From positions 21,588 through 85,587 of IMG/VR virus record IMGVR_UViG_3300028883_000041: a stretch of DNA of 64,000 nt; one strand, 5' to 3'. The notes under the pieces were generated by a model that was given only the letters and a program-made list of their open reading frames with translations, ran no database searches and had not been told where the DNA came from. Made by a program: the position numbers and the translations under genes. This stretch comes from a virus. Of the stretch, positions 55,700-59,995 are shown piece by piece. Positions within the stretch are counted from its first letter, which is position 1. Each line of letters opens with the position of its first letter.

Positions 55700-55832
55700 T
55701 TTTAATCATCCACCTTACAACTGCTGACTTATTACCAGCAAACCTTTCATCTGCAATCTCTTGTAGAAGCTTTTCTTCTTTCTTTGATAGTCTAACAATG
55801 AGTATCTCAGTTAGTTTTTCGTAATCTTTCAT
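55689..55832 (-). CDS. Ribbon-helix-helix regulator (47 aa, not in ORF track)
   Basis: ILIVRLSKKEEKLLQEIA..NKSAVVRWMI; TGATG overlap with the exonuclease gene. Confidence 0.65.
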   Translation of the reverse strand: MKDYEKLTEILIVRLSKKEEKLLQEIADERFAGNKSAVVRWMIKNAR

Positions 55833-56440
55833 CAATATCTACCTCTGTTTATTAATTCTAACATAATCTTCGATGCCATAAAAGCATCATAACTTGCTCT
55901 ATGAAAACCGTAATCCCTTATAGTATCAAGAGTTTGTTGATTTATCTTGAGTATAGGAAGCCCAAACACAATATAATTGGTCGCTTCCTCTAAATTAGCC
56001 ATTTTGAAATTAAATTTTTTATGTCCTTTCTTCAAATAGTTAGTAGCCATTCGCATGATGCATGGTGCTTTATGACGATAATAATACCACATATTGAAAG
56101 GTTCCCTATCCAAGAACCTCATGAAATCAAAATCAGTGTTATATGATGTGACAACTTTATCGCTAAGAAGACTTATCAGTTCCCTTTTAACTGTAATTAT
56201 AGGTCTTCCCTCAGTTAATATATCTTCTGTTCTAATATCACTGTTCTTTGCTAACCAAGAGTTAGGATAAGACCATCTTATAATATCATCTTTAGCATAC
56301 TTTACTAAACTATTATACATTAGTTCAATACCACCAGTATTAGGTTCTGCTCTACATACAGCCACTTCTACTATATGGTCTCTTGCTGTAAGTCCAGTAG
56401 TTTCTAAATCAATTACATATATATCATTCATTCTTCTCAC
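55832..56440 (-). CDS. DEDDh (DnaQ/RNase T-like) 3'-5' exonuclease
   Basis: VIDLETTG, YNTDFD, HRASYDA. Confidence 0.9.
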   Translation of the reverse strand: MRRMNDIYVIDLETTGLTARDHIVEVAVCRAEPNTGGIELMYNSLVKYAKDDIIRWSYPNSWLAKNSDIRTEDILTEGRPIITVKRELISLLSDKVVTSYNTDFDFMRFLDREPFNMWYYYRHKAPCIMRMATNYLKKGHKKFNFKMANLEEATNYIVFGLPILKINQQTLDTIRDYGFHRASYDAFMASKIMLELINRGRY

Positions 56441-56447
56441 TTCTTTT

Positions 56448-56524
56448 TGGTGGGACTGAAGAGATTTGAACTCTAACCCTTGGGGTCTGGAGCCCCTTAT
56501 GCTACCAGACTACACCACAGTCCC
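56448..56524 (-). tRNA. trnW: tRNA-Trp(CCA), intronless, CCA encoded
   Basis: GGGACTG/CAGTCCC acceptor, GGGG-CTCCAGA-CCCC anticodon arm, GTTCAAATC T-loop, ACCA end. Confidence 0.88.
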
Positions 56525-56530
56525 AATCAT

Positions 56531-56740
56531 TACGACCATAGGCACCCACTCAAGTTTAAATGCATTGGACTTTACGCTAACTATCGCCTATGTTTATCGT
56601 GCTTGAGATTTAATTCACATCTCTCGGCTCTTGGTATTTTGTTTGATATGGTTCTCAACCATAGCGACCCAATGTCCAGACACCGTGGAAGCTTCCATCT
56701 ATCCTTCTTGGAACAGTATCCTTATCTTGGTTTATCGTGG
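56531..56740 (-). ncRNA. Putative structured ncRNA between the minihelix and tRNA-Trp
   Basis: Helices ACGAT-AAA-CATAGGC/GCCTATG-GTCGT, ATGGTT/AACCAT, CATTGG/CCAATG, CTCAAG/CTTGAG; CACGATAAAC occurs twice. Confidence 0.45.
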
Positions 56741-56741
56741 T

Positions 56742-56778
56742 TGGTGCACCCAGCCAGATTTGAACTGGTTATGGGTGC
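56742..56778 (-). ncRNA. 37-nt tRNA minihelix (acceptor stem + T arm + ACCA; no D or anticodon arm)
   Basis: GCACCCA TA ACCAG TTCAAAT CTGGC TGGGTGC ACCA. Confidence 0.7.
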
Positions 56779-56785
56779 TTAGATT

Positions 56786-56929
56786 GGGTGGATGGTAGGG
56801 GATTTGAACCCCACTTGGCATCCAGTTTCCTTGACAGATAGCTCTTCTATCAAGTTTCCTTTCTTTTGCCTTTTCAGTTGAAGCCAGATACTCATGGAGT
56901 TGTTCCTTCTTCCACTTTCGCTTCCATCC
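56786..56929 (-). ncRNA. About 144-nt tRNA-like RNA with expanded interior
   Basis: GGATGG/CCATCC acceptor, GGGG-TTCAAAT-CCCC T arm, internal hairpin CTTGATAGA/TCTGTCAAG. Confidence 0.6.
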
Positions 56930-56934
56930 ATATT

Positions 56935-57016
56935 TGGTGTTCGGAGGTGGGAATTGAACCCACGGTGTACCAAAGCTGTTATCAGCCCAGCGGTCCCATT
57001 ACGCCCTACTCCAAAC
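56935..57016 (-). tRNA. Non-canonical tRNA-like RNA (8-bp acceptor/5-bp T stem; Ile-like CTGATAA in an irregular anticodon arm)
   Basis: GTTTGGAG/CTCCGAAC + ACCA; GTGGG-TTCAATT-CCCAC; D stem GGCG/CGCT. Confidence 0.6.
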
Positions 57017-57025
57017 ATGAATTAA

Positions 57026-57201
57026 TAGGATGGGTTGGGGTCACTGTATTTGTCAGCACCCAACTATGAGTTTGCCCTCTTACCGTTACCGTATCATGAA
57101 TTCAGAGGCTCTTACACTTGCAGTAAGTCTGTTTTCCTTACCTACGTGATTCTCTCGCAGTTCTTCCGTATGCGTCCATCAGCGTCTTCTGGTCCATCCT
57201 A
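57026..57201 (-). ncRNA. About 176-nt structured ncRNA with closed terminal stem
   Basis: TAGGATGG/CCATCCTA ends; hairpins CTTAC/GTAAG, GCCTCT/AGAGG(G)C, GTTGGG..CCCAAC; begins at the predicted TSS. Confidence 0.6.
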
Positions 57202-57222
57202 AAATGTATATACAAATAATAG

Positions 57223-57236
57223 TATTTAAAGGTTTC
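57223..57236 (-). promoter_or_regulatory. BRE-TATA promoter of the ncRNA polycistron
   Basis: GAAACC TTTAAATA about 30 nt upstream of the 5' end of the 57201 RNA. Confidence 0.7.
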
Positions 57237-57246
57237 GAAAAAAAGG

Positions 57247-58275
57247 TTATGAAGAGAGTAAGTTCTCTTCAAGTATTTGGAAAAATAGTTCTCTAATTAG
57301 TCCAGCGTGTTTATTCATTCTCTTGTTGAATGCTCTATGAAGGAGTTTATCAATCTCCTCTTTCTGCTCTGCTAAGATATCTTGGAAGACATCACCTATG
57401 ACAGAACCAGTATACTGCCTATCAATCTTCCCACGACCATGCTGTTCTTCGAGTTTCATGATAGACTTCTGGACCCTTCCCTTGGTTATGTAACTCTCCA
57501 TGATATATTGAACAATTTCATCTATATCTGCTGAACCTTTCTTGGTCTTATCTTTGTTTGCAACACCACTTAAAGCTTCTTTGAACTCCTCTCTGACAAA
57601 CTTGACCATAGGCAAGATAGTCTCCTCACCTAATGATTGCCAGAATTCTCCATCATGATATGGCTCATAGTTCTTGAAAATCACGCCTTCTCTCATCTGA
57701 CCTCCCAGATAAGACTCTACCTTGTGTTCTTCTCTTGCCCAAGTGAATAGGTCTTGCATGGCACACTCACTCTTTCCACTGAATAGGATTGGAACCTTGT
57801 CAAAATCCATGAGTTTGACTATGCTATCAAACAACTCACATTCTGGATGTAACATCGTGAAGGTCCCATCTCTTATCGCTGCTATATCAAACACCGCAAG
57901 ATAGTTCTTGGGTATCCTCTCATAATACAATGTCGAGTGTCTTGGTTTGCTCAGATACTCTCCGAAGATGATTATGCTATCATACTCCATACTCTCCAGA
58001 GTGTTCATCATCTTTTCTCTAACATTCCAACTGTCCATATGTTTAGTAACATAGTCTATGATTGGTCTGAATGTTTTCTTACTGAAGCTGTCATCTGTCT
58101 CGTCTTGGGTCCTACTTCCGAACTGGACAGTTCCATCCTTGTTTATCCCTATTCTGAAATTGCTTCCATCAATCTTTTCTTCCAGCACTATCTGTGCTCC
58201 ACTCTCAAATCTTTCCCATTGGATGTATTTCGCATTACTTCCCAACGGATGTTTCACTTTTGGATATTTCTTCAT
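57247..58275 (-). CDS. ATP-dependent RNA ligase (Rnl2-like)
   Basis: YPK, motif I EEKIDGSNFR, IIFGEY, AVFDI, EGVIFK, VKFV..FKE; T-run after the stop. Confidence 0.85.
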   Translation of the reverse strand: MKKYPKVKHPLGSNAKYIQWERFESGAQIVLEEKIDGSNFRIGINKDGTVQFGSRTQDETDDSFSKKTFRPIIDYVTKHMDSWNVREKMMNTLESMEYDSIIIFGEYLSKPRHSTLYYERIPKNYLAVFDIAAIRDGTFTMLHPECELFDSIVKLMDFDKVPILFSGKSECAMQDLFTWAREEHKVESYLGGQMREGVIFKNYEPYHDGEFWQSLGEETILPMVKFVREEFKEALSGVANKDKTKKGSADIDEIVQYIMESYITKGRVQKSIMKLEEQHGRGKIDRQYTGSVIGDVFQDILAEQKEEIDKLLHRAFNKRMNKHAGLIRELFFQILEENLLSS

Positions 58276-58954: not shown

Positions 58955-59995
58955 TTGTTAAACGAAAATTACCAACATCGAAAAATCAATTTGATAGATA
59001 TTGATATCGTACTAGTGCTTAAAGTATTTGCTTCTTATGTCACTATTACAGTTTATCATAATTCAACTAAATTGAGAACACAAAAATTCAATGGTGTGCA
59101 AAGTCGAAAATACTTTTTGAGTATTTACGACAATGCTTTGAATATCGGTTTTGATGAATTAACCGAAACTTTAACCCTATTCGCAAAAAGCAAATATCCA
59201 GAATTTGACTTTAAGACTTTGTCCAACTTCCTTAAAGGATTGATGGATGAACAAAGTTTAATTAAAGAGGAATTCGACAGATTAGATTTAAGCTTTGACA
59301 ATGAGTTAAGTTCAAGTTATAACTTAAGCGTGTTTGAAAACAAAAAAGCTGTTTGTTATGCGAGAAGGTCAATAAACCTTAATATTGGTTCTGGCATTGA
59401 AACATACGAGAAACAAACATTAAAGCTTTTATCACTTGCTCAACAAGTCTTTGAAGAAAAAGAGATTTATACTTTAATGATTGACGAACTAAGCGGTTAC
59501 TACTCACCCACATTAATTAAACGACTGTTCAAAGAAACAAGCGTTCAAGTTGTTTATATTGATAGAGTTGACCGATTAGGACGAAACGTTTTAGCATTGC
59601 TTGATTTATTGGACTATTGCTTAAGAAACAAGAAAGACATTCGTACTAGTGAAGGGTCAATAATTAGAGGTTTCGGATATATCCAAAGCGTGATTATGGG
59701 TTTATTTGCTGAGTTTGAATTACTGAGCAAACAAACAAAATTCAGCTATTACCTTATTGAAGTCGTTAAGTTCGAGCTTGGCTTAATCGCTTTTGATGAT
59801 ATGAGCGACAAAGCAGAAAAACTCTTTAGACTTGGACGTTTTAGTGCTAAAGAAGATTTCTTAAATAAAGCGTACGATTTCGCTTCAAAGGTAGTAGCAG
59901 AAAAAGACAAAACCGACAAGAACGGCAAAAGGCTACACGGCGAAGAAATATTAAAATCAGCTCTTGAAGTTATCGAGTTACTCGATAACCGATAA
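58955..59995 (+). CDS. Serine recombinase (resolvase catalytic domain) with uncharacterised N-terminal extension
   Basis: AVCYARRS (catalytic Ser), DELSG, DRVDRLGRN, helix E IMGLFAEFE; GAGGT RBS before TTG. Confidence 0.82.
   Translation: MLNENYQHRKINLIDIDIVLVLKVFASYVTITVYHNSTKLRTQKFNGVQSRKYFLSIYDNALNIGFDELTETLTLFAKSKYPEFDFKTLSNFLKGLMDEQSLIKEEFDRLDLSFDNELSSSYNLSVFENKKAVCYARRSINLNIGSGIETYEKQTLKLLSLAQQVFEEKEIYTLMIDELSGYYSPTLIKRLFKETSVQVVYIDRVDRLGRNVLALLDLLDYCLRNKKDIRTSEGSIIRGFGYIQSVIMGLFAEFELLSKQTKFSYYLIEVVKFELGLIAFDDMSDKAEKLFRLGRFSAKEDFLNKAYDFASKVVAEKDKTDKNGKRLHGEEILKSALEVIELLDNR

Follow-up and report, generated by a model that had tools for sequence, protein, structure and literature searches.

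What does a tRNA reduced to its top half do in the genome of a virus? Minihelices built from an acceptor stem and a T arm are classic laboratory substrates, and ideas on how tRNA arose also invoke them. A natural gene for this half, ending in CCA, would show that the half is a working biological unit. Such an element lies in the window, by which we mean the whole 64,000-nt stretch of viral DNA that was analysed, within an 806-nt non-coding stretch (56441-57246). An earlier note on this DNA had proposed three roles for it, namely a processing signal, a decoy and an aminoacyl donor. Here these roles are weighed together with a truncated tRNA gene, a site of integration and a part of a larger RNA.

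The window is taken from a marine-sediment record of IMG/VR that spans 85.6 kb, is estimated to be 60% complete and has a GC content of 35%. The virus is tailed, as indicated by a T4-type terminase, a portal protein, an HK97-type capsid protein, a baseplate J protein and a family B polymerase. Compared with isolated viruses, its major capsid protein and its RNA ligase display distant matches only.

Anatomy and fold of the minihelix

The element was read directly from the sequence and comprises the following parts, all on the minus strand:

56742..56778: minihelix (unit C), 37 nt
56778-56772: G1-A7, 5' strand of the acceptor stem
56771-56770: U8 and A9
56769-56753: T arm, with its loop at 56764-56758
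56752-56746: U66-C72, 3' strand of the acceptor stem
56745: A73
56744-56742: encoded CCA (A76 is 56742)

From 5' to 3', the element reads GCACCCA, UA, ACCAG, UUCAAAU, CUGGC, UGGGUGC, A and CCA. The 7-bp acceptor stem claimed earlier (GCACCCA/TGGGTGC) is borne out, with Watson-Crick pairs at 7 of 7 positions, and the same is true of the TA joiner, the TTCAAAT loop, the A73-CCA end and the absence of both the D and the anticodon arms. U8-A9 alone joins the acceptor 5' strand to the T arm. The T loop follows the U54-U55-C56-R57-A58-N59-Y60 pattern, and the G53:C61 pair is present. The T arm claimed in the earlier note stands as far as its loop is concerned, but its stem has to be corrected to 4 bp and an A49.C65 mismatch in place of 5 bp. 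A mismatch at the same T-stem position is also found in two neighboring elements, the tRNA-Trp and unit B described below.

The minihelix folds with a minimum free energy (MFE) of -18.2 kcal/mol into a structure that makes up 0.93 of the ensemble (z -4.5), and none of 200 shuffles folds equally well. The hairpin is also kept in both the MFE and the centroid folds of the entire 760-nt predicted transcript. ARAGORN makes no tRNA call for the element, relaxed thresholds included, and Rfam returns no tRNA match at E values up to 10. Compared with a canonical tRNA (RF00005), the minihelix has the 7-bp acceptor stem, the UUCRANY loop with G53:C61, the discriminator and the CCA, and fails to form the cloverleaf. 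We confirm that a natural gene for a tRNA top half, consisting of acceptor stem, T arm and encoded CCA, is present in a viral tRNA-like array.

Units of this architecture with CCA do not occur in 300 shuffles of the window; with the CCA requirement dropped, the shuffles give 0.30 such units per window. In 1.38 Mb of other viral and metagenomic loci, five weak look-alikes were found, none of them with CCA. The earlier note had named an assembly artefact as a finding that would overturn its claim. Logan contigs from two runs (85.5 kb and 6.3 kb), which may be the source samples themselves, cover the site at a depth of ~ 21 and are identical to the window. Since these contigs span the site without differences, an assembly artefact is unlikely.

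The tRNA-like array and its predicted transcript

The minihelix is one of four tRNA-like units placed between two protein genes. The features of this region, all on the minus strand and given in the direction of transcription, are:

57247..58275: gene of an Rnl2-like RNA ligase, directly upstream of the array (PF09414 4.6e-18, phrog_548 6.9e-37)
57223..57244: predicted array promoter, with a T7 run at 57244-57238, a BRE-like cgaaacc and the TATA box TTTAAATA at 57230-57223
57014..57200: leader RNA of ~ 187 nt, from the predicted start to unit A, GC 45.5%
56935..57016: unit A, an 82-nt tRNA-like RNA, from its fold and a T-arm scan
56785..56930: unit B, a 146-nt tRNA-like RNA, from its fold (z -2.75) and a T-arm scan
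56525..56741: stretch of 217 nt between the minihelix and tRNA-Trp, GC 41.5% versus 33% in other intergenic DNA
56448..56524: tRNA-Trp(CCA), a true tRNA (ARAGORN; Rfam RF00005, 56.2 bits)
55832..56440: gene of a DEDD (RNase T / DnaQ-like) exonuclease (PF00929 3.1e-6, phrog_192 2.4e-17)

The order of the array is unit A, 4 nt, unit B, 6 nt, minihelix, 217 nt and tRNA-Trp, with an encoded CCA on all four units. The 85.6-kb genome has five T-arm motifs, and four of them are grouped in this array, all on the same strand and all with an acceptor 3' strand and NCCA behind them; the spacers of 4 and 6 nt resemble the spacing of tRNA clusters. GC across the array amounts to 44%, compared with 33% for the remaining intergenic DNA. 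The tRNA-Trp, with G1:C72, A73 and encoded CCA, is the sole normal tRNA of the array. Units A and B and the minihelix each display a well-formed top half with CCA, accompanied by a lower half that is abnormal, expanded or absent. The locus offers a compact test bed, in which a canonical tRNA shares one predicted transcript, adjoining an RNA ligase, with three look-alikes whose lower halves are shrunken or expanded. Open reading frames overlapping the array (79, 100, 55 and 67 aa) have no family match. A plus-strand Rfam match to the Plastid-ycf2 5' UTR (30 bits against a gathering threshold of 65.7) was dismissed as the antisense image of a tRNA-like hairpin.

Unit A combines an 8-bp acceptor stem, a 5-bp T stem and an A-CCA end with a single long AUAA-capped hairpin that replaces the D and anticodon arms. 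ARAGORN makes no call for it at the default threshold, and unit A seems to imitate a tRNA while lacking an anticodon loop. It contains an Ile-like CUGAUAA motif, around which, however, no 7-nt loop is formed.

In unit B, a single A.A mismatch interrupts the 9-bp acceptor stem. The T stem is 4 bp long, its loop reads UUCAAAU, the discriminator is C and CCA follows, and two long inner arms take up ~ 110 nt. A 9/4 acceptor/T geometry is that of archaeal tRNA-Sec. A CUUCAAC stretch of the unit could offer a UCA anticodon, yet this stretch is paired in the predicted fold. A contig of an unrelated 2015 sediment run (X3) matches 56788-56930 with 1 change in 143 nt (99% kept). This contig diverges exactly 5' of 56930, the 5' end of unit B, and ends 10 nt short of the minihelix. 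For the ligase gene, fragments from the same run differ at 19 of 291 positions, compared with 1 of 143 in unit B (Fisher p 0.006). This difference, together with the divergence exactly at the 5' end, indicates that unit B is a discrete and constrained unit.

For the 217-nt stretch downstream of the minihelix, the predicted fold is non-significant (z -0.59) and similarity to the tRNA units is limited to T loops; both tRNA debris and a structured RNA were therefore rejected as descriptions of it. It contains a small frame of 27 aa (window ~ 56615-56698, minus strand) with AAGGA 4 nt before its ATG. Another small frame, of 19 aa, lies at the predicted transcript start (57138-57197, minus strand). 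Within the 217 nt, GGUGUCUGGA (56675-56684) could pair through 9 of its 10 positions with the anticodon arm of tRNA-Trp (56482-56491). This pairing recalls the guide RNAs contained in the introns of archaeal pre-tRNA-Trp, but no C/D boxes accompany it and the match is at chance level for the region.

The minihelix was also considered as an intron nested in a tRNA, and this was rejected on account of its flanks, which form no tRNA. Upstream lie the complete 3' end of unit B and AUCUAA, and the downstream side is unstructured and holds no tRNA half.

The T7 run at 57244-57238 closes the ligase gene, and the transcript is predicted to start near 57200. Across the genome, 15 of 31 copies of TTTAWATA fall in the intergenic 10%; most are preceded by a cgaaa-type motif and followed, at ~ 29 nt, by a start codon. 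The recurrence of this promoter motif at such a distance from start codons suggests leaderless messages and an archaeal host. The combination of tcgaaaSS and TTTAWATA, a strong motif of the archaeal promoter type, recurs before genes, for example at 57223-57238, 60724, 61960 and 62962 (minus strand). Between 57200 and the exonuclease start, the minus strand is free of runs of five or more T, so the array contains no oligo-T terminator. The likely ATG of the exonuclease lies 17 nt past the CCA of tRNA-Trp, again with no terminator between them, and judging from this arrangement the exonuclease gene and the array are probably carried on one transcript.

The host is most likely archaeal, as suggested by the intergenic TTTAWATA/BRE boxes together with the G1:C72 and A73 of the tRNA-Trp. 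Identity of tRNA-Trp is known to depend on G1:C72 and A73 in archaea and eukarya, and on A1:U72 and G73 in bacteria (PMC1538984).

As for the neighboring genes, the match of the ligase to T4_Rnl2_C is weak. An RNA-repair cassette around the array was considered and rejected. RNA specificity is confined to the ligase; for both the metallophosphoesterase and the DEDD protein, the matches are to families of DNA exonucleases; and an AAA_33-type (PF13671) kinase domain is absent. On the plus strand, 58955-59995 encodes a 346-aa protein with a serine-resolvase catalytic domain at residues 132-256 and an N-terminal extension.

Possibly a cutting mark for host enzymes, or else a truncated gene

We tentatively propose that the minihelix is a t-element-like module at which host RNase P and RNase Z cleave the transcript, a reading to which we attach slightly less than even confidence. 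Transcription would start from the BRE/TATA near 57230 and proceed through units A and B, the minihelix, the 217 nt and tRNA-Trp into the exonuclease gene. A cut by host RNase P 5' of G1 (56778) would trim unit B to a 6-nt trailer, and RNase Z, or else an exonuclease acting from the 3' side, would cut or trim back to the encoded CCA (56742), setting the 5' end of the downstream 217-nt RNA. The minihelix would act as a non-decoding cutting mark that needs neither a D nor an anticodon arm.

The t-elements of plant mitochondria, and the one upstream of 5S rRNA in Haloferax volcanii, are tRNA-derived, non-decoding elements in polycistronic transcripts (PMC1920247, PMC11658184, PMC4326828). Their acceptor/T half is read by RNase P and RNase Z and the cuts set the ends of neighboring RNAs, with an archaeal example among them. 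The minihelix likewise has a tRNA-derived structure with an acceptor/T domain. The predicted promoter upstream and the lack of an oligo-T terminator before the exonuclease gene would place it inside a longer transcript. Unlike the known t-elements, it is a bare 37-nt minihelix with encoded CCA and resides in a virus, and we infer its cleavage from its anatomy and position.

The minihelix retains exactly what RNase P and archaeal RNase Z need, and among the readings considered this one fits best (PMC7479834, PMC4326828). Methanomicrobial RNase Z cuts CCA-containing precursors, and it also cuts precursors lacking the D, anticodon or T arm, given an acceptor stem and a mature 5' end (PMC7479834). 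In Haloferax, t-elements serve as substrates of RNase P and tRNase Z and are able to free a flanked RNA in vivo (PMC4326828), and those of plant mitochondria are cut, CCA-tailed and uncharged (PMC11658184). The top halves kept over abnormal lower halves in units A (8/5) and B (9/4) point in the same direction, as this is expected of selection by top-half-binding enzymes and not of random decay. An anatomy well beyond chance, the grouping of the T-arm motifs, the constraint on unit B and the raised GC of the array also favor a processing role. Of the roles suggested in the earlier note, a processing signal is hence the best fit, given the uninterrupted array, the single predicted promoter and the retained RNase P/Z parts, with the cuts themselves being predicted.

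The earlier comparison with mascRNA can be upheld in part. The mascRNA of MALAT1 and the tRNA-like units in the TMERs of murid gammaherpesvirus 68 are tRNA-shaped parts of longer transcripts, cut by RNase P and/or RNase Z, CCA-ended and uncharged, and free neighboring RNA. They have kept the cloverleaf and belong to eukaryotic nuclear systems. The likeness applies to the proposed working mode and does not extend to membership, as the mascRNA/menRNA model (RF01684) matches only the tRNA-Trp, weakly (25 bits against a gathering threshold of 42.5), and leaves the minihelix unmatched.

By its function, the minihelix may belong among the tRNA-like processing elements, which are a known kind. Our literature search retrieved no description of transcript cutting by tRNA enzymes at such elements in archaeal viruses; it is known for plant mitochondria and one Haloferax rRNA operon (PMC11658184, PMC4326828). 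If the processing reading is true, it would indicate that archaeal viruses can cut long transcripts with host tRNA enzymes.

Several observations speak against a processing role. The 217-nt RNA that would be freed has no significant fold. The cutting mark would also be partly redundant, since unit B, 6 nt upstream, would itself supply RNase P/Z sites. In addition, the perfect acceptor stem is equally expected after a recent deletion. The remaining objection concerns conservation. The earlier note had proposed to look for the same architecture in related viral genomes, and it was not found in any of the collections searched. With blastn, 56000-57600 has no match among 50,697 phage records, and exact-pattern scans of IMG/VR returned nothing, neither with the minihelix pattern nor with that of unit B's T arm and 3' end. 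Protein-anchored scans, for which the ligase, its two closest homologues, the neighboring nuclease and the DNA polymerase served as queries, yielded one true relative, G001, with 28 common proteins of 21-53% identity, which places it at family level. The closest ligases, P0003 and P0004, are 53% and 42% identical to the ligase of the window. The metagenome scan contained, among the matches listed, more distant loci and no homologous locus.

G001 has neither the array nor the minihelix, and carries an ordinary tRNA-Gly(GCC) beside its ligase. The minihelix was likewise found in 0 of ~ 160 other ligase loci; in these and in G001, at strict and relaxed settings, the matches of the minihelix scan were the inner parts of real tRNAs only. 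In G001 (L082 5700-5773), the tRNA-Gly(GCC) has an encoded CCA and lies ~ 220 nt upstream of the ligase, with a small zinc-ribbon-like ORF between them. As a raw count, 31 of 160 ligase loci have at least one tRNA within ~ 6 kb.

This lack of a relative with the minihelix fits the main rival explanation, a truncated tRNA gene, which we hold somewhat less probable than the cutting mark. The element would then have belonged to a viral tRNA cluster, have lost positions 10-48 through a single deletion and be without a selected role, although tRNA enzymes may still excise the remnant as a by-product. A recent deletion in a tRNA gene had been named in the earlier note as a further finding that would overturn its claim, and with no homologous locus found, such a deletion keeps a fair probability. 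The minihelix fills a normal slot of a tRNA cluster, with 6-nt spacing, and the two runs are identical at the site, giving no sign of its age. Among the matches listed, 111 of 127 bacterial tRNAs with the minihelix acceptor stem and A73 are tRNA-Arg, and many of these genes begin with the same 9 nt, GCACCCA-UA; the 80 scan matches examined, out of 120, are all bacterial. Pseudo-tRNAs are moreover known from the tRNA clusters of archaeal viruses such as HGTV-1, with three putative pseudo-tRNA genes (PMC13532342), which resemble the minihelix as cluster members that do not decode. No minihelix was found, however, in the first 62 kb of HGTV-1; an orphan, unannotated T-arm element there is of full tRNA size and, unlike the minihelix, displays no clean loss of the D and anticodon arms.

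Against a truncated gene stands the clean break at the level of architecture, with U8-A9 running straight onto the T arm, and the undamaged state of stems, T loop and CCA in a genome of 35% GC. Units A and B repeat the same pattern of a kept top and a free bottom, and unit B is measurably constrained. Because all three units share this pattern, a common selection is more probable than three separate accidents at the same locus and would also maintain the minihelix. Even as a mere deletion remnant, the minihelix would show how tRNA genes decay in viral clusters.

Other readings of the element

If the 37-mer were released by host enzymes, it might also act by itself. As a decoy, or as a competitor, it could occupy host factors with affinity for the tRNA top half, the proposed targets being defence nucleases, the CCA-adding enzyme or a synthetase, or it could be a non-ribosomal carrier of an amino acid. 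We regard such a free-standing minihelix as unlikely. The encoded CCA, A73 and the perfect acceptor stem would suit it, and an RNA ligase gene lies beside the array. Hipps and Schimmel reportedly observed in 1995 that sequence-specific minihelices inhibit the growth of E. coli (cited in PMC9976931), which we count as further support.

Charging of the 37-mer is disfavored by its sequence. In bacteria, its acceptor stem is mostly that of tRNA-Arg, and ArgRS depends on the anticodon and the D loop. Neither G3:U70 nor G-1:C73 is present, as the 3:70 pair is A:U and both position -1 and position 73 are A. These two features are the marks for anticodon-independent charging of minihelices with Ala and His, respectively (PMC9976931). 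Since both are absent, the best-known anticodon-independent charging routes are closed, and the element is not a minihelix of the Ala or His type. Plant t-elements are CCA-tailed yet uncharged (PMC11658184), which likewise speaks against charging of the 37-mer. No Fem-type transferase, Ro60 or CCA-adding enzyme was found in the record, and the element has no tie to any defence system. With the charging marks missing and a stem mostly of the tRNA-Arg type, the decoy and aminoacyl-donor roles of the earlier note remain unsupported. A mimic of Y RNA (YrlA) was rejected as well, with Ro60/TROVE (PF05731) absent from the record.

The laboratory minihelix of Francklyn and Schimmel (1989) is said to measure 35 nt, versus 37 nt for the viral element. 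The synthetic minihelices of that work (cited in PMC4033280 and PMC9976931) resemble the viral element in the stack of acceptor on T stem, the 7-nt T loop, the discriminator and the CCA. The viral element differs in being a natural gene and in its U8-A9 bulge, its A49.C65 mismatch and its lack of any known anticodon-independent identity mark.

The top halves could also be a general handle, with A and B being cargo in an acceptor/T scaffold and the 37-mer being the bare scaffold, stable, CCA-ended and acting on its own. Such a 37-mer might sequester, for example, a host factor or a defence enzyme recognizing the acceptor/T domain, or might be charged, and its gene would be a natural minihelix gene under selection for a function of its own. 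We consider this combination improbable.

A piece of a host tRNA gene may be kept by a virus as an attP-type site for integration into that gene. Halovirus HF2, an archaeal tailed virus, provides the precedent, with a tRNA-like gene that is likewise non-canonical and is proposed to act as such a site (PMC8707807). That gene lies beside an integrase and its last 57 nt equal host tRNA genes (PMC8707807), whereas the element in the window has lost its middle. A recombinase gene is located ~ 2 kb away (58955-59995), but its product is of the serine resolvase type, and no member of the tyrosine integrase family PF00589 was found in the 85.6-kb record, whose completeness is put at 60%. Moreover, an att site is one contiguous stretch of the host gene, and the minihelix consists of both acceptor strands around a T arm, with three similar units beside it on the transcribed strand. 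An attP-type site is therefore very unlikely.

Finally, the acceptor 5' strand might belong to a larger RNA. Here UAAGCACCCA (56781-56772) would pair with UGGGUGCCUA (56548-56539), to which it is complementary at 9 of 10 positions, closing ~ 240 nt, and the local hairpin would be the alternative fold. Six comparable inverted repeats are present within the same 900 nt, which puts this pairing at chance level. When the full transcript is folded, the local hairpin also prevails in the MFE and centroid structures, and the enclosed 217 nt are not significantly structured, making a larger RNA of this form highly improbable.

CACCCA occurs twice, at the tail of unit B (56785-56791) and in the 5' strand of the minihelix (56772-56781), and UGGGUGC occurs twice as well, in the 3' strand of the minihelix and 24 nt before tRNA-Trp (56539-56548). 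Together, these repeats permit other helices to form over long distances in the region of the minihelix and the 217-nt stretch.
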